64,000 nucleotides of DNA from Leucoraja erinacea (Eukaryota): contig NC_073401.1 in NCBI RefSeq assembly GCF_028641065.1, positions 23,126,001 to 23,190,000 on the forward strand. The letters are read 5' to 3'. The notes under the pieces are model-generated. The model made no database searches. It was given only the letters and a program-made list of their open reading frames with translations, and was not told where the DNA came from. Positions within the stretch are counted from its first letter, which is position 1. Each line of letters begins with the position of its first letter. Shown in pieces: positions 34,857 through 63,725 of this stretch. Made by a program: the position numbers and the translations under genes.

Positions 34857-34910
34857 AGGGTGGAAGATTGCAACCTTCACGTGGTCCGCCCTGTTTCGAC
34901 TAATGCAATC
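34857..34910 (+). ncRNA. Predicted HDV-like self-cleaving ribozyme, 54 nt
   Basis: P1 AGGGTGG/CCGCCCT (34857-63/34886-92), P2 GATTGCA/TGCAATC (34866-72/34904-10), P3 ACC/GGT, L3 TTCACGT, P1.1 G34893, vestigial P4 around TTCG, J4/2 CTAA with the catalytic-position C at 34900. Confidence 0.8.
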
Positions 34911-34994
34911 AACTCGACGTGCACAAAACGGAAGACAAATAGAACAAGTTGTCCAACAACTTTAGGCTGTGCACGCCACACGAAAGAAGAAGAA
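34857..34994 (+). mobile_element. ~135-nt retroposon (copy 1): minimal HDV-like ribozyme head plus Vingi/ingi-like tail
   Basis: Flanked by AGCCAAGA(T)CCCA duplications (34846-57 and 34994-35006); ends GCCACACG(AAAG)(AAG)n; near-identical to copy 2 at 50946. Confidence 0.85.
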
Positions 34995-38490: not shown

Positions 38491-40819
38491 CTTAATGCGA
38501 ACATCAATGAGGGGTAAACACCGTCATCACCAACGTAGCTTTTGCAGCTGCATGTGTAATGGCCAATGTGACAATAACTAGTGGGAAATTGTTACCATTA
38601 CATTGCGGAGGTCCTTCATTGTACAGGTACTGCGTTGAATTACAATGATATTAAAGGGAAACTATTCAGAACAGACTTGGCAACTCTAAACTGGCATTTA
38701 CAAGTCAGTATGGGCCATCAACAGGATAAATATAATCTCTGGGCCTAGCAAAATCCTCAATCTAATATTACTAGGTTGAATGTGCAGTGTAAAAGAACAC
38801 ACCAGCAAGGGAAAAGAAGATCAAAAATTTAAGTGACAATCTGGTGGAGCTTCCGCACAAGACCACATGTCCCAAAAAGCAGAACCTGCATGCAGTCAAC
38901 TGTCATAAAGGATAGCTAACTAAAGAGTAGATACTTTAGGAACATTTCCACTCCCAGAAGTGATCGCCAGCTGATCCATATGCATCTCCTCCTGTGTCAC
39001 TTCCAACCTCAGACAATTTGATTTCACATCAAGAAACCAATGAGAGCAACAAATATAATGAAATTCATGGACCAGGAAGATATTACAGCTGTAATACTTA
39101 CCACTTGCACCCAAGATTAACCAATCTGTTATATACAGCTATAAAACCAGCATTGACTTGAATGTGCAAAATTGTCCAATTATGTGCTTCTCACCAATAT
39201 AAGTTTAAGAACATAATGCATGGATGAGGAGTAGGCCAATCAACTATTTAAGTCTGGTCTATCAATCAAGAAGTTCATGGCTAATTCATCACGACATCAA
39301 GATTATTTTGCTGTTCTCCACAGACAAATGCAGATTGGCAAATTACTGTCCCCTCTATTCAGAAATTTTAATAGGGTAGGTCTCTATTGACAGCAATGTC
39401 AAGCAGTGCTCTCTCACAAGTAACCTGCCCACTGATACTCTGGCTATCATTGCAGCCTTAGTTCTTATTTATTCATTCACAGAATTTGAATAGTTGTTGC
39501 TCAAAATGCTAACATTTGTTCCAAAATGCTCCTAAGCTCAAAAAGCAGTTAAAAGTTATACAGGGTTAAGACAAACTAAGAATGGGAGATTTTCTTCCTA
39601 GAAGAATGTGAGTGAATCAGGTGTGATTTTATGACTATAAAATACTCCTCTTTAGGCCACATTGAACCAGACTAGAACAAACACAAATATTCTCTGATTG
39701 CAAGAGCAGGGCAGAGATTATTTATTCTCCAGAAAACAACTTGCCAGCCGATTCACTAGAATCTTTCCAGACCTCCCAAAAGCACAAATCTTTGTGATGG
39801 AATACTCTCTACTTAAATTAGTAAAATAGTTCCAATGGTAGGATTCACCTGACACCATGCATGGCAATCTTTGATAATGTTGGCTGCTTTACAGAAGCAG
39901 CATGAAATACTGCCTGGTAGGTCTCATGGGGTTTGTGCCAAATTTGAGTTTGTGAGCTTCAACCATTATTTTCTTCAGCCAGTCATCAACATTTACCTTT
40001 GCTACGAATTGGCACTGAAGATATAGCAAATATCTAGGATTTGATCTGGGACCTTTATTGTTGGAGAGTGATGCTCCACAGCATGGACACATTGATGGAG
40101 GACATTAGTTTTATTAATGTTTGTAACACTCATCCTCTCTTATGCTTCATTGAGTCAAAGATGACCTGTAACAGTATCAAAATAGATGTATCTGCAAGCA
40201 TCACCTCTGTATATTGCATATGGAGTGTCTTTTATACTGGAGAGGATGTTTTGCAAGTTGAACAGTTTGCTTTGGTCAAACAATTAGCTCCATTCTATGC
40301 TACAGAATAATTTCTCTAACGATAGATACAGGGAGCTAGCCAAGGAGTTAAGAACGAAAGATCACAGTTTCAAAGGTAAGGGATGGATGAAAAAAAATCC
40401 TCACTCCATGCTTGGTGAATCTTTGTAATTCTCTACGCTATAATGCTGTGAGGGCCCAAACGTATTTACATACAAAGCAAAGTGCAGTCGATTACTGGAC
40501 ACTAAACTCGTTATAGTCAACTAACCTGGACCCCCTGATCATTCTGCTTAAACCCCATTCCCAACTCTTTCTGAAACCACATCACGGGCGTTAATGATGG
40601 CTCACTACAGGCCGGGCCGGGAGTACACACGTTGTCTGCGAGGCGCTCTAGGGGCATCTGCAGGACCGAACCTATATAAGCCTTTTCACTGGGTGTTACA
40701 TCTCCCTTTTAACATTCGCGGTACTTCATAAAGCCAAGTTGACCGAGGTAAAAGGAGGAAGCTTAAAGAGCATCACTTCATAAATATAAACATAAGCCTT
40801 CACACACACTTTAACTCAC

Positions 40820-41000
40820 CCAGTGCCGTGTTCCACACGTTATCGTGCCAGGCCCGCGTGGTCAAATGTGCTAAACAGATGCGATCTCTCGCTTCTCCTT
40901 TAACCGAACAGCCACGCCATGCAAGATTGACAAACCCCGACGGCAGATGAACACCTTCACCGGCGATGGCCGACTCTGATCGCCGCCATGCTTGACCGGA
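40820..41000 (-). other. CTU1: CTU1 non-coding exon 1 (5' limit unknown)
   Basis: Consensus donor GTGAGT at 40819-14 inside the CpG island; the ATG exon has its own acceptor, so an upstream UTR exon is required. Confidence 0.65.
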
Positions 41001-41082
41001 ACTGATCATCCGTAGGTCGGCGATGCCGACGCCTGATCACGTGGGCCGGCGAATGGTGGTTTCCGGGCGAGCCGTCCGATAG

Positions 41083-41107
41083 CGCGGTGCGCGCCGGGAA
41101 TTGTAGT
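41083..41107 (-). promoter_or_regulatory. Composite ACTACA + ZNF143/Staf binding site
   Basis: Minus strand ACTACAATTCCCGGCGCGCACCGCG matches the ACTACAnnTCCC motif plus the Staf consensus, which is known to be enriched at bidirectional promoters. Confidence 0.8.
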
Positions 41108-41119
41108 GTTTGATCTGTG

Positions 41120-41171
41120 GCGCCAGTCACCTGTCAGAGGCGGTTGGCGGCGGCGGCGGCGGGTCTGGAAG
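41120..41171 (+). other. SIRT4: SIRT4 non-coding exon 1 (5' limit unknown)
   Basis: (GGC)n leader ending AAG|GTGAGT; the next exon begins at the ATG. Confidence 0.7.
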
Positions 41172-41269
41172 GTGAGTTGCCGACGGCGGTGGAGAAGGGT
41201 CGCGCAACCCCTCGATCTCCAAGCCTTAATTACCGAGATGTTGCGTTTTGGGAAGTCTAACAGTGAATG

Positions 41270-44148: not shown

Positions 44149-44301
44149 GTATATTCTGGATATAGGTTCATCATTGCAGCCTTTGAGAAGAGGCTGCCTA
44201 TTGCAATACTAAACATTGGGGCTACCAGAGCAGATAAACTGTGCACTCTGAAAATCAGTGCTCGATGTGGAGAGGTTCTGCCATACGTTCTTCCCTTTTA
44301 A
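44149..44301 (+). CDS. SIRT4: SIRT4, last coding exon
   Basis: Acceptor TTAATAG|; [50 protein letters not shown]. Total 948 nt, 315 aa. Confidence 0.96.
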
Positions 44302-44543
44302 CACTGTCAAGCTGTACAACAGGAAAACTCCTTGATTCTGGTAATATTACAAACATATGGAACAAAATTCTATGAAAAATAATCCATATAGATTAGTAAT
44401 AGCAATTTCTCACGCAGTGGTATCTTTATATACAGGCTGCATTTTGTGTATATGAAGATCGAAAGATTTGAGAAATGATATCTTCAACAATTTCCTGAGA
44501 AATGGATTGCAACCATTACCAAGTTCTTGCAAAGTTTCCTATA

Positions 44544-44588
44544 AATAAATACAAAAGTTTGTTTCATGAAATCTATTGTTTCAATAAA
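44544..44588 (+). terminator. Candidate SIRT4 polyadenylation signals
   Basis: AATAAA at 44544-49 and 44583-88, followed by T-rich sequence. Confidence 0.55.
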
Positions 44589-45585
44589 TCACATTATTAA
44601 TTTATGGTCTCAACCTTTTTTAATTGTATAATGTTGTTGAATAATCTTACATTTTTTTCAAAGAGGAAAATGTATAGATTTCTTATTGATCCCCAAAAGT
44701 AAATCAGAATCCAAGGCTTATTTGATCACGTCATATTTCACATATCACATTTGGATGGAGCTAAACCAACAAAAATCATTGTAGGATATCGACTATAGGC
44801 TCCTAAACAGCCGTACGGTAGGGGGATGGCGTAACTTAGGAAATTAGAGACTCGTCCTGAAGGAATCAAACAATAATCATGAAGGACTTTCATCTACCTA
44901 GAGATTGGGCAACCTAATTATCAATAGTAGTGTAGGCTGTATTCATGTAGAAAATATAGTTTTATAGATCGAAAATTAGGTGGTGGACTATTTTATGCAT
45001 AGCAAATGGCAAAATGTATTAAAATATATTTAATGTTTATTGTTTAATTGCAAACAAAGCTGTAAAAATAAAATCACAAGACAATTACAATATTAAATTT
45101 ATTCTGAAGAATTGCATTTAAATTGCATGGAAGTATAGTTTTACAACAAGAGAAACTACATTTTAATGATAAGGATTCACGTTTCATGAGGTTGTTTGCC
45201 GAGCTCATACACAAACCCACTAGACCCAATAAAGCTACAATCCAGCAAAAAGTTAAATTTTATTAAGATTGTTCTTGCAGTATGTAAAAAGGAATTAATG
45301 AATATTTAGCTCCGAGGACAAACTGTGTGCCAGTCTGTTACGCCTCTACATTTTCTGAAGGCATAGAAATTGAAGGCCAAGAAAGAAAGTTTCAAAAAAG
45401 TAATAACTTTTGAAAATCAAAGTAACCTTAAATGAAGAAAGCACATCCATTCACCTATCCATTGTTGAAAGACAAATTAAAAGCTACAATGGATGTACAA
45501 AAAAAGCCATATATTTTCCCATGCTATTATACAGCACACTGAGTACTGAACCAAATGGGGTAAGGTTACGAAATGTAAAGTAATA

Positions 45586-45884
45586 AGTTTAGTTTAGAGA
45601 TATAACACAGCGGAAACAGGCCCACGGAGTCTGCAACGACCAGCGTTCTCCACACATTAACACTATCCTACTACTAAGGACAATTTACATGTACACCAAG
45701 CCAATTAACCTACATACCTATACATCTTTAGAGTACGGGAGGAAACCCAGGATCACAGAGAAAACCCACGCGGTCACGGGGAGAGCATACAAACTCTGTA
45801 CAGACAGCACCCGTAGTTGGGATCGAACCCGGGTCTCCAGTGTTCAAGCGCTGTAAGGCAGCAATTCCACTGCTGCGCCACCGT
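45586..45884 (-). mobile_element. Full-length tRNA-derived V-SINE (HE1-like) with CR1-derived tail
   Basis: Minus: GGTGGCGCAGCAGTGG (A box), GGTTCGATCCC (B box), GTGGGTTTTCTC...GGTTTCCTCCC core, GGGCCTGTTTCC...(CTAAA)n tail. Confidence 0.85.
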
Positions 45885-46175
45885 AAAGCATATCGGCACG
45901 AGGACCAATAACTTACAACTACAACTAAGTAGAAGCTTAAGTTATCGTATTCAGTAAACAAAGTCTCAATCAGTGGAGTCATTCAATATTTTAAATGTTT
46001 TAAAGCTCAAGATGACCAATGGAATTTCTTCCAAAAATCACCCCAAATTTGCAGATGTTACTCAGCAGATTGACATTCCATTGATGAACAAATGCAATGG
46101 TATAATGGAATACACCTACATTTCAGTATTGACACCAAATTGCACACGCATTCTGGTACAATTATTGCAAGATTA

Positions 46176-46500
46176 AAAGATTTCACATAAATAAAATTAC
46201 CACGTTCTACTTTTCTAAAATTGAACAAAAATTGCAATCTTCTAACCATAGAACTTGACTTGCATTTATATAGTAATTTACTGTTATTTTCCAAATATGT
46301 AATAACTAGTCAGTGCATGGCAAAGATTCACAAACATGGATGAAAGATTTCACATAAATAAAATGTTCTACTTTTCTAAAATTGAACAAAAATCGCAATC
46401 TTCTAACCATAGAATCTGACTTGCATTTATATTGTAATTTACTGTTATTTTGCAAGCAAGTATGTAAAAACTAATAGGTGCATGGCAAAGATTCAAACAA
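46176..46500. repeat. Local tandem duplication, two ~160-bp units (period ~167)
   Basis: AAAGATTTCACATAAATAAAAT...GTGCATGGCAAAGATTCA starts at both 46176 and 46343, with few differences. Confidence 0.9.
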
Positions 46501-49500
46501 CAAATGACCTACTGCTTTGATTTAGGTGTTAATGATTAAAACTGTCAAAGGCAACTGCAGAATCCTACAATTAAAAAAAAAACACCACCATGAGCATATT
46601 TCACATTCACCTCAATAAGTAGAAGAGAATATGTGGGTGGGAGGAAGGAGGAGGTGGGAATGGAGGCTCATTCTAACATCTCGTCTGAAAAACAATTTCA
46701 TAGAAATTGTTTACACAGAAGGAAGCCATTTTCCTCTCAAGCTTCCTTAATTTTAAGTGTATTATAATTCGATTCACCTGAGATTTCTCTTTCTCATATT
46801 TTCTATTTCAAATACTTGTTCAGATATGCTCAAGATATCATTAGAAATTTTGCATCAATAGCCATTTGTGCTTTGAGTTCTACATGCATTAAATTGCTTA
46901 ATATTTTCTCAGACCCTTTTCCAATAGTTATCCTCCATTTTCTTGCTATTGATGAAAAAGCCTTTCATGCTTCCAGAAACCTGAATAATTGGAAAACCTG
47001 AGATCACTACGAAGTTTTAATGTCCCCAAATCGACATATAAATATCTACTGATTCCTTAATCATTTTAGAACCGTGAATAGTTCAGTACTCATCTAAACA
47101 TGATGGAATGCTAGCCAAATACACGTAACCTGTGCTAATAATTTGATCCCATCAACATTCTGGTGTATCTGCGCTATATTCTTCCTAAGGCCAATATTTA
47201 TCTTCTGTGTTCAATAACCAAAGAAAACATACCACCCTGACCAAGGACCTGAACAACTGAGAGCTTACAAGAAGACCACTGAAACATCTACATGCATTTG
47301 TCTATGTATTTTAATTCAAAACTAAATTTTATTCCAATCCAAATTATAAAGTTTTTTAATAATTCCAATTAATCTGTTGCTACTGACTATGAGATTAAGA
47401 GGGATGAATTAAATCAGAGCAGACATTAATGAATTTTGTGCTCCGTCACATTTGGATTTTATTTGTGAGAAGTGCAGGACCTGCCTGCACAGAAACAATA
47501 CTTAAACTGAGGACCTGGTTCATCAAATGTGATCAGAATAATATACTTGCATGAAGAGTAATCTTCATCATTCTTGGGTGGGGTGAATGTTCTTTCTTTG
47601 TGGTGTAATACTTATCTCATCCCTACCCAAACTGTTCCCGCAGGCGCCACTTTATATTGTCATTAATAAATGACTGAATAACCAGGAATAGTACAGCAGG
47701 TGGACTCAATTTACTGCTCCTCCTCTCCATGATGGCAGCATCTAATAATGCATTCACCCCCCCTGATCAACCCATCTTAGAATAGAGATTGGTCATTAAA
47801 TAACCACTTGATGGCACTATAGAAAAGTATCAAAAATACAATTTTAAAGTCTACTGACCAATAACTTTGGAATCCAAGAATTGTAGACAGAAACAAAAAA
47901 ACAGTACAAACTATAGCAATTGAAAATGAGATATGTCTCCAATACCCTGATACCTGTAGTTGGAAGACGGGATATATGTAAACTAAACTTGTATATTCAC
48001 GAACAGGAGTCTCAGGAATAAATTGACACAAATATAGCAGTGCCGTAATGTCAAGAACACTGGTAACTAAGTTGTAAAGAAAAGGAAAATCCAGTTTTTG
48101 GCACATTCATCTTTGTTATCGGGCTGACTTTTCCAGTTTTAATTAAACTTACTGTTTCTCAACAAAACAAATGAGCCTGTTTACTAATGTTTAGAAGGGG
48201 ATACAGGTGCTTTAATATATTGCAGATAATTTAGGGTTTCCATTAAAAAAAAAGACGTTACAAACAGCTGCCTATAGACATTAGACACTATGCATGCTAA
48301 ATGTACGATATACACAGTGCTAATGCTAAACCAGAATTCACAAAAGTGATTTGCAAGATTGTGACATTCTTGATACAGCTTTCTCACCTTTCTGAGCATT
48401 AAAGTTAACCTTTGTATTTCAGGAAGCAATGGTTGAAATTGGTGAAATTGGGTCAGAGCTTTTAAAGAGATCTCTCTGCCGCGGGCATCCCCAACAAACC
48501 CCAGCTCTGCAGCAGGATCACGTCTGCAGATCGAGTGATCCATGTATGATATTTTCCAGCACACAGAAGCTGGATTTTACATTAAAAATGGACGTGCTAA
48601 TGGTGGGGTATCACTTGAAATCATGTATAGTTCATTTTCAAGATGAATGAATGCCTTGTTTAATCACAAGTTGTAAACATGGATCATAAGTTGATACTTA
48701 TTGAGCATTAATTTAAATAGCCACTAACAGTTCACATTTTAACTTGTATGAGATACTGTTGGGAAATGACACCAGTGGAGGACGAATTTCAACCGGAATT
48801 GTCTGGTCCAATTTCCCTACTTGTAGGAACACACAATTCCAAACAAGTGCAAAACAATCTGTATGCATACTTAGTGCATAAAGAATATGTGCATTTGGTG
48901 CATTTCCTACATTGCATACATCACTGCAAGGCAACGGAGCGAGATATTCACTACACACTTTAAATTTAGAAGAAATGATTCACAAGGGTGCTAAATCATC
49001 ACATAGTAAATTTAGATAATCATTACGTTATTTTTTGGAAATCCTTGTTATAACAATGATGGGAATGGCTTTTGACAGATGAGTTTTACACAGGGCTCGT
49101 ACCGTCCTTGAAAGACCTGGAATTTGAAACTGTTTTTCAAGACCTTGAAAGTACTTGGATTTATCAAAGGTCCTTGAAAAGGTTTTTTAATGACACGTAT
49201 TCATTCATGCAGAGTAATGTGGCGTATTTTCATCAAGTTTATAATGCACATTTTAAATTAAAAGTCGGGAAACATTGTTAGATACGTTTGCCTTTGTCGC
49301 CTATTTACCTATTTTTTGCCTGCTTTGTCGCTGAGAATAAAGACACTGAAGAATTAGGAATGTGTGTCCTGTCTGGTATTCATTTACGAATATGATCTTG
49401 AATTACGGGCGCACACAGAAAGATCAAAGGAACTGCCAATTGACAAACATCGTTTTTTTCTCCCAAACTTTCAGAATAGCTGGCATGAGAACAACTCACA

Positions 49501-50945
49501 GGCTCCCCAAGTATCATACAGTAATGAGGAGTAAAATCTGAGCTTCAAGCTCATGCAGGTGGTTCCAATAAATAGGGGGTGTGGCTTCAACTGTCTGGAG
49601 TTTTCTGGGTGTACAGAAAGCATTAACTGCACTGCTGCAGCACTTCTCTCTCTCCCTCTCTGAGTGTGTGAAAGCTCACACACATACTGCATGCACAATG
49701 CATTTCCCATATAGAAGGCATGCATGCACCATGGAGCAGGAAATGTCTAGCTCCATGCATGCACTGTACTGTGTGCATGCACTATGTACGCGTGTATGTA
49801 TGTCTATGAACACCGGACAATTTCATTTTCTCTTACAGGGATGTGCAAGGTACAAGAGTAGAGTAATACACTGCTGGTAATATAATGAAAGTACTCTGCT
49901 AAATGTTTTCTCTACGAAAATGATGTGGAAATGACATCTTCCAATAAAATAAGAAAGTAACGACTATAGCAAATCTTATATAAATCCTCTGGCATATGGA
50001 ATAAATCTACTCATGCACCCCTCTGCTGAATGTATCAGTCTCTACTGATCTGCAGCTATGACATACATATTCATAAACTGCCAGATTGCTTGTGTGTATC
50101 ATACCACATCAAGAACCTTTTTTTTTCTTATGCTGACGCCTAATTACTGATTGGAGAAGACTCGGAGTTGGAGTGAGAAATGATCATGCAACAAGTCATG
50201 ACAGCCATGAAAGTTCACTCCAGTCACTGACCGAGATTTCAGTAAACAGCAATGCCGGGAAGTTGTGTGCTTAACACCAGATGGATCCATGATCCAAAGT
50301 ATTAAGAGTAGATTGCTAAAGGTGACATACATCATGCTAAATGTCAACCCTGTCATAAGACAATAGACTTGACCAGCATGGGTGAATCGGCGCTCACTAG
50401 TCATGGAAAAGGAACTAAACACCAAAAGTTATTAGCTAACTTACGTGAAGAAAACCGGAACAAGCATCATTCTTTACAAAAGAGTCAAGTAGTAAACCTA
50501 CTTCAGGCTCAGCCGCACCAGCAACTGCCCATGAACCACCAGATGCACCGTTTTGATCCTCTTTCAACTCGGGGACTACGTCAGCAAACCCCGTGCACAA
50601 TCACTCCAGCATCATTTGCGAGCAACACGGATACATTAAAAGCCAAATTACGGTGGGTATTGAAACAAGTGACAGCACACAATAGTTAAAAATCATCCGA
50701 GGACGCAGGTGAACTGTTCAGGATGATGTTTCCTGATGGCGAGAAAGCCTACGGGTTTCAGTGTGGTGAGAAAAGAACCTCCTATTTATCCGTCTTTAAT
50801 GATTTGTTGACATCACGTGTAAAAGCACAAGATCATTATGTCCTCCTCTTCGACGAGTTGCTTAACTCCAAAACGCACAAGCAGATGGACATATATGTCA
50901 GACTGTGGCATGGGGACAGAATTGTTTCCCTTTTCCTAGGATCCT

Positions 50946-51071
50946 GGGGTGGAAGATTGCAACCTTCACGTGGTCTGCCCGGTTTCGACCAATGCAATCA
51001 ACCCAGCGTGCACAATCAAATAGAACAAGTTGTCCTACAACTTTAGGCTGTGCATGCCATATGCAAGAAGA
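50946..51071 (+). mobile_element. 126-nt retroposon (copy 2): minimal HDV-like ribozyme head (50946-50999) plus Vingi/ingi-like tail
   Basis: Perfect 10-bp TSD CCTAGGATCC (50935-44 and 51072-81); removing it restores the transposase reading ...VSLF-LGSQFMGH; the element starts at ribozyme G1 after one extra T. Confidence 0.88.
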
Positions 51072-51278
51072 CCTAGGATCCCAGTTTATGGGGCATGGAT
51101 CATCTGAAATCATGCTGGAAAAATTCCTTATGGGTCTCGGTGATTTGCCATTGAGGAATCTAGTGCAAATCTCTATGGATGGACCAAATGTCAACTGGAA
51201 GTTTCACCGCCTGTTACAAGCAGAGGTAGGCTAGGTCTTGTTCATAATTTTTCATAATTATTTCATATTGGTCTAGAT

Positions 51279-52270
51279 CAGTGGTTCTTAACCTGGGGGT
51301 CGTGACCCCCATGTGGGTCATTTGGGGTTTTCTGGGGGTCATGAAGGGGTTGTAAATATTGTTGAGCCGATGTTTAGGAACCTAACAAAGGTACATACCA
51401 CACACAGTATTTTGTTCTCATCTGTGCGTATGTATACACAGGGCCTATGAGAGGTGGGTGCAGAGGTACAACGTACCCGGACCCGGAGTCCAAAAGGGGG
51501 CCCGGGAATTTCCTGAAATCTCAGAAAATGTTTGCATATATTTTGTGAAGACTAACATTCATATCTTATGTAAGCCTACATAGTTTTATACAGGCACGGA
51601 AATGGCTATCAAAACATGGGGGACACACACACAATTTCTTGGTGGCCATGCGCGCGCATGAGCACACACACGAGGCTTCGGCCATGGGCCCTGTGGACGG
51701 TAACATCGGGAGCTGATCAGGTTGGTAGACCGACTCCGAACTCCAGCAACAGCAGCTTCGTCCGCCCCGAATCCGCCCATTCGCGGGGCCTTTCATCGGG
51801 AGCCTCGATGCAGCAGTTTGATTTTAACCCCGCCGGGCGCTGAAAAGCCCCGCGAATGGGCTGATTCAGCCGTTAGAAAGCGTCTGATAAAGTGCACATT
51901 ACAAAACATTGGGTGGGATTGCCCCCTCGCCCCCCCCCCCCCCCTCAGGATTACCGCCCATGGTTTTATACACCGTAATTCGTAGAAATTGTGATCTATA
52001 ATAAAGCAGGGAATTTTAACAAGCGGGTGTGTGGTCGGGGTAACCTGATTAAAAGAGGGAAAAGGGGAAGACCCATCACTACTGAGGTTCCCTGTAGGAG
52101 GGGAGCACTAGGACCTAACAGAGTCAGACCACGTGCTGTCAGCATGGTGGAGGTTGTGGGCCAGTGCTGCATCTGGAGCTCTGGTGAGTTGACGGCTCAG
52201 GCCCGCTGGTGGCTGGTGGAGAGGCGAGGGTTGGCGGAGTCGCTGGTCGAGGCCCGTGGTGAGTCGAAGT
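51279..52270. mobile_element. Nested non-autonomous DNA-transposon fragments replacing the central part of the hAT transposase
   Basis: Charlie-type start CAGTGGTTCTTAACCTGGGGGTCGTGACCCC at 51279; second CAGGGCC-type start at ~51439; GC-rich hairpin 51769-51867; right boundaries unresolved. Confidence 0.5.
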
Positions 52271-53927
52271 AGAGATACATGGCCAGGCCACTGTAGAAGG
52301 TGGCTTTTCAATCAATCGTTAAGTGGAAACTGACAACCTCAGTTGCTGCACAGCGTATTATCTGTGACCATGCAGCATCGGTCGGTTACAAGAACATAGA
52401 ACTGACAAAATCATTGCTTCTTTCAGCTTCCAGTGCACACCACAGGTATATGGCACACCTTGATGATAAGCAGAAAGCCAAGAAGAATGTGACCATGCAG
52501 CAAAAAAGAAATGCTTTGATGGCAGAACTAGATCAGATGAACTGCAAGAAGAGGTGTTTGGAAGAAGACATCAGGGCATTAACAGAGAGTGCTGATACAT
52601 ATGCTGAGAAGGCAGAAACATCAAGAAGCTTCACCATGATCACCAAGTCCAACAGCATGTGCAGATCTGCCAGTGAAAATAGTGTTGAGCTGAAAAAAGT
52701 GCAACAAAACATAGAAGACAAACTCACTGAAATAAAAAACTTCTAAAGAAGAGCTTGAAAAATGAAATAGCAAAGTTTTCCATTATCATGGTTTCAGATT
52801 GAACAACTAAGAGATGTGAAAATGGTGCTCTATTGAAGTACGACTATAGATAACTTAACCATCTTTTGTGTAATTATTATGTAGTTTAGTGTCGTTCCGT
52901 GCAACCTGGGCTAATGAATTGACTGATCACCTTCTCAGATTTCCCTGAAAATCAGTGTTTGTACATCAGAGCACACAACAGAAAACAAGGTCTCAACTCT
53001 AAATTTCAATGGGCATTTGGCAATAATTCGAGTTATATCAATGGTTCATAACTTCAAAGGAACCTTGAGTTGAAAGTTGATTTTTTTCTGCAGTTCTTTG
53101 TACAGGGTACCAGAGGTGTGCAAAACATGATTTTCAATCAAATCTGAGATGGTGACCAGCCAACCTTCTTATTTACTTTTAATTGGTACAGAATCAAATC
53201 ATCCAATATCAAGCAATTTATATACAAGTCTCTGATAAGCCATCAATGTTTGCTGGATTTTTGTCCTTGAAAATCGGATTTTTGGACCTTGAAAGACCTT
53301 GAATTTATAGCTGTTCCAAGTGTACGAACCGTTTACATTAAAGAGGATATCACTTTAAATCATGTAAATCACACTTCCAATATGGCTTTTTTAAAAATTA
53401 TGTGCTGTTCACACCGGTCATATGTATTTCAAGGTTTGTTATATTTAAAATCCAAATTCTCTTCCCATGCTCTCCACCTCGGAGTGAAATAGCTATAACA
53501 AACAATGTCGAAAACTCAAGGGCATTTAAAGATATATACTGCATCTACACATGACTGCCATGTTCCCAAACAAAAAGTTAGAAATATTGAACTTTGCAGA
53601 CTAATAGCTTGGGATTATTTAAAGCATCGTAAGTAACAAGATCATTCTGAAAACTAGCACTGCTCACTGAGATATGTAACCATTGTCTTATGTTAAGTAG
53701 AACAACAGACGCTGCCATATTACCTGCACAGGAAACCATTGCTGGTATAAAAATAAGGACCTTTTCCTTACATTTTTGGTCTTCAGCAGTAATGATTGGT
53801 TCAATGACATGGATTCTCAACCGCTTTCTACCAAAATGAAAATTCCAAAAGACGACTCCTTTTTGATTCAGTAGGGTTCTCTGGTTAGAGTCAGTAATTC
53901 CAGGGACGGTTGAAGGCATTGCCTCCC

Positions 53928-54126
53928 TCATGGGCTCCCTGGAGGGGTGGCAAATCCTGAGCTGTCACTGTCACTGACGGCTGGAGATCGTGGAGCACTC
54001 TCAACAGGGCTCTTAGCATTACGAAATTTATCTAACAAAGTTGTATTAAAGGCAGATGCAGGAGTGCTCATTTCCCCTTGAGCTGCATTGTCCTTGGGAG
54101 TTTTGGATGGAGTCCCACCAGGAGAT
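53928..54126 (-). CDS. PRR11-like proline-rich protein, coding exon 6 (last)
   Basis: Acceptor CTCTTTTAG|A; (R)SPGGTPSKTPKDNAAQGEMSTPASAFNTTLLDKFRNAKSPVESAPRSPAVSDSDSSGFATPPGSP*; phase 2 matches exon 5. Confidence 0.85.
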
Positions 54127-54838
54127 CTAAAAGAGGAGGCGACAGGAATTAGTAAAGTGCATTGAGTGGAGAATAGTTACTAATAAATGACGTGCATTAA
54201 AGCAATCTCGACCACATATAGGCAATAAGTACCAGGTGAGGCATGCTTATTGATTGGGGTCTGGCCACACCACCATAACTAAATGTAGCGTGGGTTGTGG
54301 TGACGGAGAGGGTTCCATGGGTGTGAGGTTGTTCCGATCGCTGGCCCGATGGTGTGCATTTTCCCCCTCCAGGTACCTACTCGCCTTCTCTCCCTTCTGT
54401 GTGAGACCAATGTTGATCTAATGGTAGCTACCACCCTCTCTAATGCACTCAATGTATAACAAATGAAGAGAAGGACTCCAGGAAATTGATGGTATCTGAA
54501 TGACCCAAGTCCTTTTTATAAAATTCAAACTTGGGGTTAAAGCATTAATAATTAGATACTTGGAATGTTCGGACTCTCCAACATAATGTCAGAAAGGCTT
54601 TATATATCTCAAGAAAACAGAAGCAAATATTTCTGTGGACAGTTCTATCACCTATTAATATGGCACTGTGTGAAAGTAGAACCTATCTATTCACTTTTGC
54701 AGCTCACAGAATTATACAGCACAGATATGTCCTTTGGATCACCATTCTATGCCAGCCATGGTGCCCATCTATACATCGCACTTACCAGCATTTGATCTCT
54801 GGCCTTGTGTGCCTACATTTAAACATAAGTCTACATAC

Positions 54839-54952
54839 CTGTCCACCCCTGTTGAACGAAGCCTCTGAAAATGGTTTGCAGCCAGCAGCTCAGAGTAGAT
54901 ACTGACAGGATGACGGTTGTCGGCATTTCCAGTGTCTCTCAGGTCCCCAATA
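54839..54952 (-). CDS. PRR11-like protein, coding exon 5
   Basis: TTTTTAG| ... AG|GTATGT; 114 nt, phase 2-2; (S)IGDLRDTGNADNRHPVSIYSELLAANHFQRLRSTGVD(R). Confidence 0.8.
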
Positions 54953-55609
54953 CTAAAAACAGATTAATTAACAAAGTAAATTTGAGCAGCCACCAAAAAC
55001 ACATTATAATCAGTGGGAACAAAGATGGTTATTACGTTTCAGAAATCGAGTTTTAATCTTTCTTGTTTTGTACACAACGATTCAAGCTCATTAGTAGCAA
55101 CGATTTTAAGATACTTAACGATTTTAAGATACCGAGTAAGTGACAAATTATTTTAGGTACCAGCCAATCTACCATGTTCTTCAACCGAAGAGACTAAGTC
55201 TATATTCTAAAGTTTAGAAGAATGAGGTGTCTAGAATCAGGTATCAGTCTCAAATGAAGCGTTGAACAATCACAAAGATGAGAATGTTATGCATAGAATT
55301 ATGGAATTCACAGTCCAAGTGGCAAAGGTAAATCGCCCAAAGAGCAAGTGTTTCTATCCGAGGTTTATACAAGTTCCCCTGGCAGTAAATGGCTCCAAGA
55401 GTTATGAATTAAAAGGTCCTTGGTATAGTTCCAAATACCTAGTTAATAAAATTTGAACCTGTAGCACATTGGGTTTCTGTTAACCTCCCATGACTTCCCC
55501 ACTCCCAAAGGGATCTGGAATCGTGGAAGTACCACTTTAGTCTGCAGGATTCACATTTTTCATGTTTGGCAGTGCCATGGATGTATCAGATTACATTGGA
55601 TAGCTGTAG

Positions 55610-56290
55610 GAAGGAACTAGATGTTGGTGTACACCGAAGATGGACACAAAATGCTGGAGTAACTCAACGGGACAGGCAGCATCTCTGGGAAGAAGGAATG
55701 AGTAACATTTTGGGTTGAGACCCTTCTTTTCCATAAAAATGCTTAAAATGCTCGACACATCAGGCAGCATCTATCAGAGTACATGTATTACTGCTTGGTA
55801 CGCAATGTTTTGCCTTAGTTAAATCAGCAGCATAGGTTATTGCAAAAACAGCTGAGCAATGGGTTTTACACTCCAAGTATTTCCCTGGCTGTGCAGCAGC
55901 GACCCAATGTAGACACAAAATGCTGGAGTAGACCTTTCATTTTTTCAGAGTGATACAGCATGGAAACTGACTCATTCGGCCAAACTTGCCCATACATGTC
56001 CCAGCTACACTAGTTCCACCTGCCCATGTTTGCACCATATCCTACCAAACCTGTCCTATCCATGTGCCTTAAAGATTGGGATAGTCCCAGCCTCAACTAC
56101 CTCCTCTGGCAGCTTGTTCCATACACCCACTACCCGTTGTATGAAAAAGTTACCCCTCAGATTCCTATTAAATCTTTTCCCCTTCATCTTAAACCTATGT
56201 CCTCTGGTCCTTGATTCCCCTACTCTGGGCAAGATTCTGTGCATCTACCCAATCTATTCCTCTCACGAGTTTATGCATATCTCATGACTT
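55610..56290. mobile_element. Penelope-like terminal-repeat pieces (55610-55775, ~55910) and CR1 3' end (55945-56290, minus)
   Basis: GACACAAAATGCTGGAGTAACTC...GAGACCCTTCTT; minus ORF SRTRGHRFKMKG...FFIQRVVGVWNKLP. Confidence 0.75.
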
Positions 56291-57491
56291 TGTACACAAA
56301 TCAGGTTTTCTGTTTCAGTTTCAGATTTAGAGCACTGTTTGCTCGGGTGCTGAAATGTTCAAGGCTAAAAACACCAGGTTTTGACAATGGAATTAAAAGG
56401 TTTGGGGATAACATGAATTTGAGGTAACAGATCAGGCACAATCGTATTGAATTGCAGAGTAGGTGTGAGGGACTGCTGGCTTCAATCTCCAGGTTATCAT
56501 AATTCTTCCATAACATGAATGTGTGTGTGATTTTTCCAAATCGTAACATTACATACATCTTCCATTATTTACATAGAATATTTCCTTAAACTGAATTTTT
56601 GTAAAACATTAAATTACACTAATTTTATGCTGGATATCCACCTTTACCATTAAACTCATATCCAGAACCGATACTCTTTGATCCACTCATTTTTACCATA
56701 TTCATTAAGAACTTTCACTCCACTAGGGACACAAAACCATGGATATTTTCATTCAGATGTATAATGTAGTTGTGTGAGCAAAGTGTTCAAGGATTACCGT
56801 GCACACAATTCATACTGACTCGTGACATGCACTATCTTGGCAAGTTCAGAATATTGTTTTTATATGCTATAATTTTAATGTCATTTTCTTATTTTAAATG
56901 TGGGAGATATACAAACTGCATTCTATTAGGAGTGCTCCTAGCCACAATTAACCTCCAAATTGTTTCCTTCACATAATTGCAATCTCCACATTCTTGCCTT
57001 AAGAGCATCGCTCATCTTTTCAGTTATTTATTCCTACACAGTGTCTAACACGATGCAACAAAGGATTTGTATTTATAAAGTCAGAGCAACTTTGTAACTG
57101 ATTCTATTTATTTTTGTGATAACCCGCTATACCCAAGTCCTTATATAAATAAACAAGTGTCAATATTGGCTCACTGGTGATAAAACTGTGTTCCAAGCAC
57201 CAAGTTTTAATGGAAAAGAAAATGAATGGGAGCATATGTTTAAAGTTTGCCCTTAGCTATCATGTGTTTGTGGAATAGTGGGATGCACTGATCCAAAAGG
57301 CTTCAACGCCTTGATGTTGTTGCTCTTTATGGTCAGTGACATTGAACAGCCTGCACTGGTTAATTGTGCCCCCATGTTGCACACTGACACAACTGACCAC
57401 CAGTCATGTTCATGTGAGAAACGCCAACGGTTTAGCTTCAAATGTTAACATGTAGTAACTATGCTTCAAATTAAATGTTGCACCCTCTCAC

Positions 57492-57568
57492 CTTTTCGAA
57501 CGTCGATTCAGTCTGGCCAGTCCATAACTCTCCAGTAGGTCTGGGGTTGCCATGACCATTTGTCCTTC
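57492..57568 (-). CDS. PRR11-like protein, coding exon 4
   Basis: CTCATCTTGCAG| ... AAAG|GTGAGA; 77 nt, phase 0-2; EGQMVMATPDLLESYGLARLNRRSK. Confidence 0.8.
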
Positions 57569-58085
57569 CTGCAAGATGAGAGAAAAGCAACAGAGACGGC
57601 ACTTTAAATTTATCAAAGTAGTTGTGAAGCACTTGACCCAAGGTGCGTGATTTTTCTTAAAGTCAAAAACGCAAAACTTCCCAGCTCCTTCTGGCAAGGT
57701 CTACTTTTCTTTCCAGGGCATTCATTTTTTCTGAACACAAAACTTTGGGTTTGTCAATACAGGTGACCCCATATTATGGCTGTTCAGACAACAGAAATTC
57801 ATATATCACTACCCAAAAATTTAAGATATAGAATAAAATTCGCTCTCACAAAATTTAAGTGAAAAAAGTAAAATCAACACAAATTTATTTATTTAAACTC
57901 ATGTTTCTGACATTTGTGTAGATGACGTGGTTTTGTGTTACAGGTAATTGCTATCTGGAACATTTCCTAGCAACGCAACCTCATTGTGATGTGGGGTTTG
58001 CCTGCAACCGCTCCCACGCCACACCGTCAGCCACTAAGCTAAAACAAAATGCATTTGTGGTTTTGCTTCAAGCATGGCTACTTAC

Positions 58086-58327
58086 TGTGCAGAGGTTGGA
58101 CTTGTCTTTCAGAGGGGTTTTGAGCGGCAGATTACGGAAGGATAGAATTGGTAGTGGTGGTGGTGTTGGAGGAGGAGGGGGAGGGGGAGGAAGAAGAGGA
58201 GGGGGAGGAGCAGGAGGAACCGTAGCAGCCAATACAGGTCGGCAGGAACCCGTCTTTGTAGAATTCTCGGCCTGCTCCTTCTGCCTCTTTTCAGCTAGTC
58301 GCTTAGACGTTCTTGGTCCTTTGGCCT
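58086..58327 (-). CDS. PRR11-like protein, coding exon 3 (polyproline)
   Basis: TTTTATAG| ... ACA|GTAAGT; 242 nt, phase 1-0; (E)AKGPRTSKRLAEKRQKE...PPAPPPPLLPPPPPPPPTPPPLP...KTPLKDKSNLCT. Confidence 0.85.
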
Positions 58328-58352
58328 CTATAAAACACAAACATCCCAATGA

Positions 58353-59935
58353 ACTGGAGTCAATTATTAAAGAGGTAATAATGGGGCATTTGGATAGCAG
58401 TAAAAGGATTAGTCCAAGTCAGCAAGGATTTATGAAAGGAAAATCATGCTCAGCTAATCTTCTGGAATTTTTTGAGGATGTGACAAGTAAAATGGGTGAA
58501 GGGGAGCCAGTGGATGCAGTGTATCTAGACTTTCAGAAAGCCTTTGATAAGGTCCCGCACGGGACACTGGTGACTAAAATTAGAGCACATGGTATTGGAG
58601 GTAGGGTGTTGACGTGGATAGAAAATTGGTTGGCAGACAGGAAGCAAAGAGTAGGAGTGAACGGGTCCTTTTCAGAATGGCAGGCAGTGGCGAGTGGAGT
58701 GCCGCAAGGCTCGGTGTTGGGGCCGCAACTGTTTACCATATATATTAATGATTTGGAAGAGGGAATTAGGAGCAACACTAGCAAGTTTGCGGATGACACA
58801 AAGCTGGGTGGCAGTGTGAACTGTGAAGAGGATGTTAGGAGGTTGCAGGGTGACCTGGACAGGTTGAGTGAGTGGGCAGATGGGCAGATGCAGTATAATA
58901 TAGATAAATGTGAGGTTATCCACTTTGGTGGCAAAAACAAGGGGTCAGATTATTATCTCAATGGGGTTAGGTTAGGTAAGGGGGAGGTACAGCAAAAACA
59001 AATTAAGGGGGCCAGATTATTACCGCCATTCAAATGATCATGGGGTTAGTATCCCGTTAGGTACCCCCTGATCCCCTTAGGGAGGGTACATCTAACTCCC
59101 TCTTAAAAGACTTGTGTGTACCCTCTGTTGTACAGTTCCAGAGATTCACCACTCTCTGTGTGAAAAAAGTTGGCGCACAGGTTTTAAAGCATCCTTAAGC
59201 TGTGACCCCTTGTCCTGGACTCCCCAAATGGAATCCTGGCCTTCATAACAATTTTGTAAGTTTCTTGGGTGTCCTTTCAGTGAAAGTTGGGAGTACAGCA
59301 GGCAGAGCTAATGGGTTCTTCTAACAAGAGGATTTGTATTAGGGGTTCTTCTGCTGTTTAGGGCTCTGGTAGACCACATCTGGAGTATTGCATACAGTTT
59401 TGGTCTCCTAATTTGAGGAAGGACATCCTTGTGATTGAGGCAGTGCAGCGTAGGTTCACGAGATTGATCCCTGGGATGGCGGGACTGTCAGATGAGGAAA
59501 CATTGAAAAGACTAGGCTTGTATTCACTGGAGTTTAGAATGATGAGGAGATATCTTATAGAAACATATAAAATTATAAAAGGACTGGACAAGCTAGATGC
59601 AGGAAAAATGGTCCCAATGTTGGGTGAGTCCAGAACCAGGAGCCAGTCTTAGAATAAAGGGGAGGCCATTTAAGACTGAGGTGAGAAAAAACTTTTTCAC
59701 ACAGAGTTGTGAATTTGTGGAATTCCCTGCCACAGAGGGCAGTGGAGGCCAAATCACTGGATGGATTTAAGAAAGAGTTAGATAGAGCTCTAGGGGCTAG
59801 TGGAATCAAGGGATATGGGGAGAAGGCAGGCACGGGTTATTGATTGGGGAAGATTAGCCATGATCGCAATGAATGGTGGTGCTGGCTCGAAGGGCCAAAT
59901 GGCCTCCTCCTGCACCTATTTTCTATGTTTCTATG
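58353..59935 (+). mobile_element. CR1 LINE, 5'-truncated, with a scrambled segment at ~58995-59355
   Basis: QQGFMKGKSC, YLDFQKAFDKVPH, SGVPQGSVLGP.LF.IYINDL, KFADDTKLGG; 3' tail TTCTATGTTTCTATG. Confidence 0.92.
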
Positions 59936-61029
59936 AACTCTGAATATCAGTGGTGCCTAAATCAATGAATGGTGGCTGTGACGCTAATAAGGTCATGCAG
60001 AAAATACACACAAAGGGCACCAATCAGTTTACGCTCAGTCATTGTGGCACTATCACATTGGAGATGTTGGCAAGTTTGATTAACCTGGAGGGAAATTACA
60101 GCATGTGGTCACTGGCATGCCAATTTTCATGGAGAGGTGATGCACTAAGATAGATGGAAGTGGGATTCGTCTCAAAGCAAGGAGGGGCTGAATAACCGCC
60201 TTTCATGTCATACATTGCTGAGAGATTTCATAATTAGAACAAATCCCAATAAATAAAATAAAATCAAGGAAAACTAAAATATTTGCTCTCTCCAAATGCC
60301 TAAAGATCAATAATTTCTCAATATCCATTATATATTGGTCCCTCAATTACTTCATTTCAGTGTCATATAGTTCCGTCCCAACAGCATTTGAAGAGAAAAC
60401 ATGCTTCCGTTGGATGTAACTTGTTTAACACGAAGTGTCCAACAGAGGGTCTCCTTACCGAGAGGAAAATGCCTCAGCCCCAAATACATCATCAAAAAAA
60501 GTCGTCCTGAGGACTAATGTGAAGCACATCACACATAGTACACCAGTAACACCACTTATCCGTGCTCATACATAGAGAAAAAAACACACCATTCCAGTGC
60601 AGGGATTTAGCTTTCGCTCTGCATATGGAGAAAGGCTTCAGCATTTAAGACGTGCCTTTTGGTTATTGCAGAACTGCAAACCAATTCATGAAGATTTCTC
60701 CTAATAACCATCTTAGCTCCCATTTCAATTTGTTTTTGTTGTATAGCTACTGCAATGAAAACATTTGGAAATAAAATGCTGATGTTAGCTTCACTCAAAG
60801 AGTGTGCCTTGAAGTGGTGAAACTAGGTGTCCTCTAAATACGAGAAGGCGTCTGTCTATTTTGTTAATCCACAAAGAAATATTGTGATGATCGACAACGC
60901 TTTTGGATGGGTTTTCTGAATATATTTGATTTCATCAGCTAAATTCACTTGTTATGCCATAACCTTTGATCAACTTTCTATTGAATTGTAAACTGAAAAT
61001 CTTCCCAATTCTTCTTTCTAATGTCCTAT

Positions 61030-61355
61030 GATCACCGTCGGGGTTCGGCGTCAGCGTTCCACCAGCCCGGCGTGAGGGCCTGAACATCGGGCCACCCGGG
61101 GCGGCGACTGCGGGTGCTCGGAAGGCCCCGACCACGGATGGACACGGAGGGGAGGCTGGCTGGACAGCCTTCCCACCTGGGTGCCATTTATGTATGTTGT
61201 GTTGTGGATCAGAATATTTCAATTTTATTTTTAATATGTTTTATTATTTAATTTTCATTAATCTTGTGATTTTTTTTAACGATACTGCCTGTACGGGAAA
61301 TTCATTTCGTTGTCTCAAAGTGAGGCAATGACAATAAAATTTGAATACAATACAA
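61030..61355 (+). mobile_element. Non-autonomous retroposon with GC-rich head and GACAATAAA+(ATACA)n tail
   Basis: CpG-rich 61035-61180; tail ATTTCGTTGTCTC...ATGACAATAAAATTTGAATACAATACAA resembles that of 26756-27187. Confidence 0.6.
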
Positions 61356-61641
61356 GAATACGTATTGAACAGTCTGGATAAACAGCTGCAGCCCCGATAA
61401 TCAGAATACATAAAAATCAGAATATTAATATACCCTGACTGTACACCACACTACATAATCCTGAATTGTTTATGTACAGTCAATGTTTGCCAATTACAAG
61501 GGAAAAATGTGACTACTTTCATGCATATTGCAAGCAAACCATCACATTCTTCCAAACATACTCCTAAATTGCCTACCTATCTCCTCATTAGATTGACTTG
61601 AGATTGAAACTTTGACAATCCATTAAGAATAGCAATCTTAC

Positions 61642-61765
61642 CACAAGCATACATCTGCACTTTCGTCATCTCGTCCTTCAAACCTTGGAGTCTTTCTTGT
61701 AACTCATCAATTTCAACAGCATTGCAGCGGTTCATTTTACCATCCACAGCTGAGAAAAATTTGGC
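61642..61765 (-). CDS. PRR11-like protein, coding exon 2 (predicted coiled coil)
   Basis: TTTCTTTACAG| ... TGTG|GTAAGA; 124 nt, phase 0-1; AKFFSAVDGKMNRCNAVEIDELQERLQGLKDEMTKVQMYAC. Confidence 0.85.
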
Positions 61766-62299
61766 CTGTAAAGAAAGTGTTCATGTTTAATAATTCCAGA
61801 CAAGTTTAATAGTTCTGCATTTATTGCTAACCTTGCAACATTTAATGTGGGAAACGAACAAATTAATGGAACATAGTAATTCAGAGGTCTACCCTCCACA
61901 AAGGCCTAGGCACTAATAATAACGCATTTAAACAGTTTTTAGTACAGGTAGTATAATTTCTCAAGGCACTTCATATCAATGATATTTTGATTACAAAAAA
62001 CCCATTGGACACAGATGCAATGAAGATCTTGACTGCAGTTGCATCACAAGAACATAGACAGAGAGAATACTCAAAACCATAAATTACACAAATTCTACAA
62101 AACAATGAAATAAAAATAAATACACAGAAAAAGGGATTATGCAAAAATGTATAAATTGAACGTCTTTTTTGTTACCTTCAAATGTCAAGGAGAGAGTTGG
62201 TGAGCGGCCATTTTGAAGGACAGAAACCTTTTTTGAAAACTAAAATTGGTAGGATGGTTGCAATAAAGACCAAAAAGATGATAGGAGACTTGTTAGTTA

Positions 62300-62715
62300 G
62301 TGGGAGAAGTTGGACAGACGGATTGTTTTCTCTGTAACACTGGAGGTTGCGGGGAGACCCGATAGAAGTATATAAAATTCAGTCTTAGACAGGATAGACT
62401 GTTAGAAACTTTTTCCTACCAATGGAAAAACTTTTTCCCACCAATGGAGCTGAGCAAAGTTTAAAACAGGTGTGCAGGGCAACATTTAAAGAAAAAAAAA
62501 AAGAGGATGTGAAATGCTGGAAAATGACATTGTGGGTGGAAATTCAGGCAGGTACAACAGTGGCATTTAAGATACATTTGGAGAGACATGTGGATGTGCA
62601 GGGATTGGAGGGATATGGATTATATACAAGGAGATAAGAGGTAGCCTTGGCATCATTTTTGGCACAGACATTGTGGGCTTAAATGCCTGTTCTTGTGTTG
62701 AAAAGTTATATGTTC
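62300..62715 (+). mobile_element. CR1 LINE 3' fragment
   Basis: GGAGGTTGCGGGGAGACCCGATAGAAGTATATAAAAT (RLRGD.IEVYK); CR1 tail. Confidence 0.7.
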
Positions 62716-63017
62716 TAATTTTAAATTGTATTAGTAAAGATAAAGTGGAGAGAAAATAATAGACTAAAATCTCATGGTCTACGCCCAAACGAATATTTTA
62801 AAGAGATAGTTGTAAATAAAATAGGAGTTGTCTCATCGTCAAAAACTGTCAAGATTCTACAACTATGACCATGGTTTGGAGTAAATTAAATGACATTATA
62901 AATAAAGGAGAGACAAAATGGTGGGGGTTCTCAGTCACATATTAGAATAATAATTCTTTGAGTGGTTCCAAGTGTAACTGAAACAACATATCAACCAGCT
63001 TCTGATATCGACAGTAC

Positions 63018-63242
63018 CTTGATGAAAGATTTCAACCCAGCGTTCTCGAGTTCGGCTTGTTTGCGTTTGCGTACAACCTTCTCACACAACGATGGGTTCT
63101 GATCCATTGAGCGAAATAAGTCCTGCAGTGCCTTTTCTGTGTAAGTCATTGCCTCGATGTCAAATTCCTCTTTAGTCATACGTTTACAAAACATCTTACT
63201 CAGAGGATACTCTTGGTCAAATTCTTCCAGAGTTTCCATCAT
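63018..63242 (-). CDS. PRR11-like protein, coding exon 1 (exon starts at 63246)
   Basis: TCCACAG|ACCC ATG ATG G; 225 nt to AAG|GTACTG; MMETLEEFDQEYPLSKMFCKRMTKEEFDIEAMTYTEKALQDLFRSMDQNP...KSFIK. Confidence 0.82.
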
Positions 63243-63489
63243 GGGTCTGTGGACATGAAGGTGGCGGAAAAAGTATTAAAAGGGTAAGAATATATTGCAC
63301 ATTAGCTTCACACGTGCTCACTGACTTGTTTTCTTATCAAATCTCACTAGGGCATCACTTCAATGTAAATTACTCAATTACAACCAAAATCATATAAAGT
63401 TAAGGGAGTTATTGCAAAATTTAGAGCAGAGTTTGCCCATTATGTAGGTATGTTGAATACAGTGCCTCACACATATTGTAAATCTCCGA

Positions 63490-63725
63490 GGATAGACACA
63501 AAATGCTGGAGTAACTCAGTGGGACAGATAGCATCTCTGGAGAGAGGGAATGGGTGACGTTTCGGTTCGAGACCCTTCTTCAGATTGAGAGTCTGAAGTC
63601 TGAAGAAGGGTCTCGACCCACAACGTCACCCATTCTTTCTCTCCAGATATGCTGCCTTTCCTGCTGAGTTTCTCCAGCATTTTGTATCTATCTTGGGTTT
63701 AAACCAGAATCTGCAGTTCCTTCCT
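63490..63725. mobile_element. Fold-back Penelope-like terminal repeat with hammerhead cores on both strands
   Basis: ~95-bp inverted arms; flanking duplication ACACATATTGTAA(A/G)TCTC(C/T)GA at 63469-89 and 63726-46. Confidence 0.85.

Follow-up and report, generated by a model that had tools for sequence, protein, structure and literature searches.

A 64,000-nt stretch of the genome of the skate Leucoraja erinacea (hereafter, the window) holds two copies of a short repeat, each headed by a sequence that is predicted to fold as an HDV-like ribozyme. The question raised by this locus is what sets the front end of such an element and how it spreads. Our answer is that the element is probably a non-autonomous non-LTR retroposon, the RNA of which is released from host transcripts by self-cleavage and re-inserted by a LINE enzyme, probably Vingi. 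The features of the predicted ribozyme in the second copy, and the position of the first copy, are as follows.

50946..50999, plus strand: predicted HDV-like ribozyme of copy 2, 54 nt, P4-less (pairing check and published descriptor)
50946-52/50975-81, plus strand: ribozyme stem P1 of copy 2 (pair-by-pair check)
50955-61/50993-99, plus strand: ribozyme stem P2 of copy 2 (pair-by-pair check)
50962-64/50972-74, plus strand: ribozyme stem P3 of copy 2 (pair-by-pair check)
50965-71, plus strand: ribozyme loop L3 of copy 2, UUCACGU
50982-83, plus strand: ribozyme J1/4 of copy 2, GU, followed by a 5-nt spacer and then J4/2
50989-92, plus strand: ribozyme J4/2 of copy 2, with the predicted catalytic C50989 first
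34857..34993, plus strand: copy 1 of the family, with an A-U first pair, a CUAA junction and an 8-nt loop insert
about 34846-57/34994-35006, plus strand: target-site duplication (TSD) of copy 1, plus GGGT microhomology

A pairing check found the nested double pseudoknot, in the order P1, P2 and P3, in both copies. P2 (7 of 7 Watson–Crick pairs) and P3 (3 of 3) are complete in each and L3 is identical, as a first-pass annotation of this DNA had claimed. P1 forms 7 of 7 pairs in copy 1 and 6 of 7 (two of them G·U) in copy 2, in which G50951·U50976 is a wobble and G50946 faces G50981 as a mismatch. The annotation listed this wobble and first-pair mismatch correctly, although its count of two changes omits a third, at +1, where copy 1 has A and copy 2 has G. 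The U..C-G letters of L3 and the C-G pair of P1.1 match the descriptor given in PMC6326823, and the single P1.1 pair is as in the CPEB3 ribozyme. P4 is missing in the copy 2 ribozyme, where the 5-nt spacer joins J1/4 to the catalytic C.

A structural descriptor run on both strands of the 64-kb window matched only copy 1 and copy 2; it found 0 matches in 40 of 40 second-order Markov resamples. A 21-mer common to the two copies occurs twice in the window versus 0 times in 100 shuffles. No Rfam family qualified at the gathering score in the whole window; by E-value, nothing relevant appeared for copy 2 and a weak HDV-F-prausnitzii match for copy 1 (16.6 bits, E 0.65, threshold 44), from models that score neither pseudoknots nor a missing P4. 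The minimum-energy fold of copy 2 keeps P2 and pairs the 5′ G run with 50999-51004, not in P1 (z −0.52). The energy-folding program cannot form pseudoknots, and its fold is not used as support.

The remainder of copy 2 comprises a 3′ stem-loop, a tail and the flanking duplication.

50935..50945, plus strand: 5′ TSD of copy 2, perfect over 10 nt; probable length 11 nt, taking T50945 as a deaminated C
51005..51058, plus strand: 3′ stem-loop (energy folding, z −1.96 for 51000-51071)
51005-14/51049-58, plus strand: outer stem of the 3′ stem-loop, 10 bp with the family's majority letters, with one wobble and one mismatch in copy 2
about 51028-51044, plus strand: inner hairpin of the 3′ stem-loop (folding)
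51063..51071, plus strand: tail of copy 2, a short (AAG)n, longer in other copies
51072..51082, plus strand: 3′ TSD of copy 2, with C51082 as the probable 11th base

Copy 2 is a non-coding element of 126 nt (50946-51071). Its ends are as first described: a perfect 10-nt repeat, CCTAGGATCC, at 50935-50944 and 51072-51081, then a single additional T (T50945) and GGGGTGG starting at 50946. The duplication is probably 11 nt long, with C51082 matching T50945 through a CpG transition. Read most simply, the extra T would be the deaminated last base of the duplication, which once stood in a CpG with G+1. We rejected the idea that this T is a quirk of copy 2, as T at −1 is common in the family (50–58% in the junction rows listed, versus 29% T across the window), an excess for which CpG decay of the last TSD base would largely account. 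By analogy with R2 junctions, non-templated addition is a possible alternative source of the T.

To place copy 2 in its family, we drew on four of 24 sequencing runs, mapped on 50750-51270 at 80% likeness: DNA runs X1, X3 and X12, which represent three organisms (related fishes), and RNA run X24, a single library of which 5 in 100 was sampled. Matches numbered 9,663, 8,355 and 8,512 contigs in the DNA runs and 3,460 reads in the RNA. Summed DNA depth is 18–170 in the flanks versus 0.64–3.7 million in bins inside the element (50948-51073). The lowest listed position divided by single-copy contig depth gives 14,000–23,000, a figure that conveys an order of magnitude and is no copy number. Loose 3′ ends behind 51071 start AGAAGAAGA, in 576, 573 and 486 DNA contigs and 1263 RNA reads. 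In runs X1 and X3, one contig each, at single-copy depth, links 50845 to 51073 with TCTT between; these junctions skip the element and about 90 nt of its left flank and may represent an allele or a paralog with a deletion. One contig from organism C covers the left flank, where it shows 9 differences and 3 gap letters in 217, and continues across the boundary of the element. The copy 2 insertion thus probably predates that split; the flank contig of organism B ends at 50943.

Behind 51011-51014, where the edge of the stem and the internal loop of the 3′ stem-loop lie, the family carries indels. The letters left loose in the rows at 51015 and 51022 are element sequence, which marks these rows as insertions in the loop rather than truncations. 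Between 51011 and 51022, subfamilies differ by insertions of 8–10 nt in this internal loop, and the copy-1 type with the insert is frequent among the RNA reads. The 3′ stem-loop is likely to be a LINE-derived recognition element.

The family majority has a G1·U first pair (T50981 in 98–99% of DNA depth) and a CGAA junction, and fits the G1-Y, U19/C23/G24 and CRRA positions of the descriptor in PMC6326823. The best-supported six among the differences listed between copy 2 and this majority lie at 50976, 50981, 50990, 51005, 51055 and 51062, and four of the six are CpG transitions. Majority letters at the three ribozyme sites are C50976 (82–92%), T50981 (91–99%) and G50990; the last, the second base of J4/2, is G in 45–63% of family depth, C in copy 2 and U in copy 1. 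Copy 2, with its G·G first pair and CCAA junction, is therefore a decayed copy. Neither its first pair nor the A-U of copy 1 follows the G1–pyrimidine rule, and a G1A change lowered CPEB3 cleavage from 92% to 3% in experiments described in PMC8233481. From their sequences, both ribozymes are predicted to be impaired; for copy 2, where the G·U first pair and the purine that followed the catalytic C are gone, the prediction is slow cleavage or none. The first-pass statement that copy 2 keeps its catalytic C is accurate as far as it goes (C50989 is present, in a CCAA J4/2), and it understates the damage, as two descriptor positions failed. In the family majority the catalytic C itself sits in a CpG (CGAA, 50989-50990), so methylation-driven C-to-T decay would switch copies off.

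The 5′ boundary bears most directly on self-cleavage. The first-pass annotation had proposed the distribution of 5′ ends as a check on its view that self-cleavage sets the front end and, among the rows listed, junctions pile up at 50944-46 in every run. Loose 5′ ends at 50944, 50945 and 50946 number 48, 86 and 96 in X1 and 155, 520 and 523 in the RNA run; at 50945 and 50946 they number 95 and 85 in X3, and 77 and 77 in X12. Short elements are often full-length whatever sets their start. The RNA adds a second kind of boundary. The loose end before G50946 (523 reads, median 25 nt) has a consensus that closes with 22 letters of the SMART template-switch oligo (Table 1 of PMC8579666), which adds three G ahead of the four G of the element. 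Adaptor-ended reads make up roughly 130–160 of the 523, as back-calculated from the agreement value. RNA molecules thus end at G50946, the predicted scissile base. The first full bin reaches 90% of plateau RNA depth; the 5′ boundary is crossed by 1,198 reads and the 3′ boundary by 1,468. About 1,050 of the 1,198 continue into the flank, which antisense, dead or uncut copies would be expected to produce.

Because both genomic copies and RNAs start at the predicted cut base, self-cleavage likely trims the front end of the element. The RNA ends at G50946 fit self-cleavage and transcription starting at +1 alike, and this part of the first-pass view therefore stands for the position of the end (junctions at 50944-46 in three organisms, RNA ends at G50946) and falls short of separating cleavage from a start at +1. 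One rival holds that an internal Pol II promoter starts transcription at +1, as does Pr77 of L1Tc/NARTc, with the ribozyme fold inherited from a parent LINE and secondary or acting alongside. In L1Tc/NARTc the same 77 nt are described as both promoter and ribozyme (PMC3383444). Capped RNA template-switches more efficiently (PMC8579666), so the adaptor-ended reads could be capped starts, and a cap-derived G would be invisible within a G run; the same source, however, has template switching capturing uncapped RNA too. Against a promoter, the boundary matches the scissile position to the base, and the family keeps both its near-universal G·U first pair and an intact core. We regard a +1 promoter as the source of the 5′ end as quite unlikely.

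An artefact in the RNA reads is unlikely as well, if somewhat easier to entertain. A G run within a stable helix is prone to artefacts from reverse transcriptase stalling or strand invasion, and the element's 5′ end is just such a site, with GGGG available for invasion and a single library sampled; the element would then still be a retroposon with a fixed 5′ boundary. Strand invasion, however, would use the genomic G's and leave the adaptor T against T50945, whereas the adaptor appears with three extra G in the consensus of the 50946 row and not in that of the 50945 row. Stalling should stop reverse transcription on the structure's 3′ side rather than precisely at +1. Self-cleavage remains our preferred reading of the 5′ end.

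The two insertion sites in the window share an 8-mer, GATCCCAG, on the 3′ side of both copies and in the same register to +1; in copy 1, the 5′ TSD copy of the word has lost the T. The RGATCC noted earlier at both targets is present, and the shared word is longer than was reported. Among 200,000 random pairs of 20-nt segments drawn from the window, 0.33% share at least 8 letters and 0.11% do so in near register, in a comparison for which the word was picked after the fact; the hint was therefore a fair one. The endonuclease bias that the annotation built on it is not supported by the family data. All seven DNA flank consensuses listed at 50944-46 (48–96 contigs per row) are AT-rich, with agreement of 0.34–0.37 and without GATCC, and, from the RNA depth in the bin 50930-50947, no more than about 91 of 1,198 reads (about 8%) could have a GGATCC flank. 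We rejected a fixed RGATCC target on these consensuses and the upstream RNA depth. The broader proposal, that the mobilizing endonuclease prefers GATCCC just upstream of the 5′ junction, can draw on the shared position of the word relative to +1 in both window targets and on the insertion signatures of RTE-related retroposons (PMC6007223); against the seven flank consensuses and the RNA depth, we judge it improbable. A minority or register-variable target preference is possible.

Two further features frame the setting of copy 2.

53928-63242, minus strand: neighbouring gene with six coding exons, running from 63242 to 53931
49091..53331, plus strand: decayed repeat hosting copy 2, with broken frames and inverted-repeat-like ends

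Copy 2 lies between the stops of two convergent genes, 2,857 nt past that of the minus-strand gene and 6,646 nt past that of a plus-strand Sir2-family gene (which ends near 44300), and we therefore rejected an intronic position for it. It is antisense to the minus-strand neighbour and sense to the Sir2-family gene. The earlier remark that both copies are antisense to the nearest host gene is literally true, although for copy 2 it describes an intergenic insertion. Being intergenic, copy 2 is uninformative on intronic strand bias. RNA depth on its flanks is 0–3, and hence no abundant transcript crossed copy 2 in RNA run X24; depth in this run is equal in both mate directions and cannot test strand.

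Copy 1 lies antisense in the predicted first intron of a gene with PP-loop and zinc-ribbon profile matches, which we take to be CTU1-like, 197 nt upstream of the splice acceptor (acceptor 34660, candidate donor 40819). The region 40580-41200 is CpG-rich and contains, besides the candidate donor at 40819 on the minus strand, one near 41173 on the plus strand; it is likely to be a bidirectional promoter for the CTU1-like gene and a SIRT4-like gene. The product of the minus-strand neighbour of copy 2 is a proline-rich protein of roughly 320 amino acids in which no Pfam domain was found. In the search made, it has homologues only in sharks and rays (78–99% identity), unnamed or labelled mitochondrial fission regulator 1-like. 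No AATAAA occurs on the strand of this gene between its stop and 49000.

Within the 49091-53331 repeat, copy 2 is inserted in sense in a broken reading frame that reads L-G-S on either side of it, which agrees with a clean target duplication. The repeat is 4.2 kb long, with a possible 6-bp duplication (TTTACA), transposase-like broken frames and paralogous contigs in all three organisms; it is probably a DNA transposon. Pfam searches of 149 of the 152 stop-to-stop frames in 44300-56000 gave nothing below E 0.016, and the broken frame left of copy 2 had no homologue among 75 candidates. Further short repeats are inserted near 51278-52000. Elsewhere in the window, 17147-18758 is a relic of a Tc1/mariner-like DNA transposon (222-nt inverted repeats at 95%, DDE_3 match), and at 37455-37577 and 63486-63697 units of a short repeat, found repeatedly in the window, stand head to head as inverted pairs, possibly Penelope-type ends.

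Copies in the sense strand of introns might be purged because they cut host pre-mRNA, an idea that follows from the self-cleavage mechanism and with which the antisense position of copy 1, 197 nt from an acceptor in the predicted CTU1-like intron, agrees. Against it, that is one intronic copy, copy 2 is intergenic and in sense to both the Sir2-family gene and its host repeat, and antisense bias is common among retroelements without ribozymes too. We place the purging of sense copies slightly below an even chance.

With fixed ends, a TSD, a simple-repeat (AAG)n tail, no ORF and dispersed copies, the family has the characters of a SIDE/NARTc-type non-autonomous retroposon; on sequence grounds we assign it there, as probably derived from Vingi; the shortness of the element and its P4-less predicted ribozyme are unusual. 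We rejected a tRNA-derived SINE (SINE2), as the window contains no tRNA and simple patterns found no A/B box-like motif in the element. The closest counterparts in the cited papers are NARTc/RIME and L1TcRz of trypanosomes (PMC3383444, PMC4035085), in which a short non-coding LINE partner, dispersed with TSDs, likewise carries an HDV-like ribozyme from +1 that cuts just upstream. NARTc is described there as 263 nt long and poly(A)-tailed, and as having a P4 helix and a demonstrated promoter, whereas the skate element lives in a vertebrate, measures 126 nt, is tailed by (AAG)n and has a P4-less ribozyme predicted from sequence. The R2 SIDEs and R2/R1 SIDEs of Drosophila (PMC3414825) resemble the element in joining a 5′ HDV-like ribozyme to a LINE 3′ end and in their promoter-independent release from co-transcripts; unlike the dispersed, high-copy skate family with no fixed target, they are reported as rare and site-specific in 28S rDNA.

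Bipartite derivatives are reported from four clades: RTE, Ingi, Vingi and R2 (Kojima 2018, PMC5786205). In the sequence given there, the 5′ end of Vingi-2_Gav, compared by eye, opens on a run of G and shares L3, GU, CGAA and the end of P1 with the family majority, whereas all three stems differ in sequence yet pair, and the core is not clade-specific. Scans for other copies and for a partner LINE gave 0 and 3 pattern matches in viral contigs (the 3 in phage coding DNA), 1 in metagenome contigs (inside a fungal-like ORF and due to chance) and 0 and 0 in prokaryote genome contigs. With no partner found in these scans, and no LINE matched to the 3′ half of the element, the link to Vingi is a resemblance of a core common to other HDV-like ribozymes, and Vingi would be the best lead for the partner clade rather than a statement of membership.

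The active CPEB3 ribozyme (PMC8233481) agrees letter for letter with the family majority in L3, J1/4, J4/2 and the first pair, again with three stems that pair although their sequences differ; it is described as a single intronic locus with P4, whereas the skate ribozyme is P4-less and heads a mobile vertebrate repeat. As in the minimal HDV-like and theta ribozymes of PMC10879173 and PMC6326823, P4 is replaced in the skate family, here by a 5-nt spacer. Theta ribozymes adjoin phage tRNAs, an association not seen for this vertebrate repeat in a window without tRNA. The introduction of PMC10879173 gives the origin and function of minimal HDV-like ribozymes as undetermined, with examples in phages, and, according to a review (PMC6765202), many metazoans have LINEs and SINEs that contain HDV-like ribozymes. 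In a separate comparison by eye, the elephant CPEB3 ribozyme (PMC8233481) and positions 2-74 of the crocodilian LINE Vingi-2_Gav (PMC5786205) differ at two of the first 40 letters and at none of the last 14 (52 of 54 agree outside distal P4), with distal P4 as the main difference; SINE2-1_AMi shares its P4 stem with CPEB3. No paper naming both CPEB3 and Vingi was found in the literature searched. These likenesses suggest that the CPEB3 ribozyme may be a Vingi relic.

We propose the following cycle for the element. A copy would be co-transcribed in sense from a host or repeat promoter, in keeping with the lack of Pol III boxes. Its first 54 nt, in the predicted nested double pseudoknot, would then cut 5′ of G+1, and a LINE protein would bind the 3′ stem-loop and tail and prime at a genomic nick. 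Insertion would occur at largely unselected, AT-rich sites with duplications of 10–17 nt, as suggested by the flank consensuses and the two TSDs seen, and CpG deamination would afterwards account for most of the decay of copies.

Flies and trypanosomes are known to have non-autonomous retroposons headed by ribozymes, and the kind is thus not new. No description of the skate element was found in the literature searched (HDV-like ribozymes, SINE/RTE, Vingi, skate/shark), and Repbase or Dfam may list the repeat without its ribozyme. What sets the skate element apart is a vertebrate, dispersed, very high-copy family of half NARTc size with a P4-less predicted ribozyme. A more far-reaching picture, which we put forward tentatively and would not yet bet on, is that an active HDV ribozyme without P4, present in skates in copies of the order of ten thousand, stands at the head of a 126-nt promoterless Vingi parasite, among the smallest self-releasing retroposons, that cuts host transcripts in vivo, and that the 5′ ribozyme of Vingi is the ancestor of the mammalian CPEB3 ribozyme. 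If this is true, the skate family is a natural mutational scan of the CPEB3 core. Its thousands of dated copies would offer a test of self-cleavage as the process that fixes 5′ ends in vivo, and of the purging by hosts of cutting copies in sense orientation within introns, and the 126-nt module would define the minimal cis-signals of a LINE clade that, as described in PMC13708176, is now used for gene writing.
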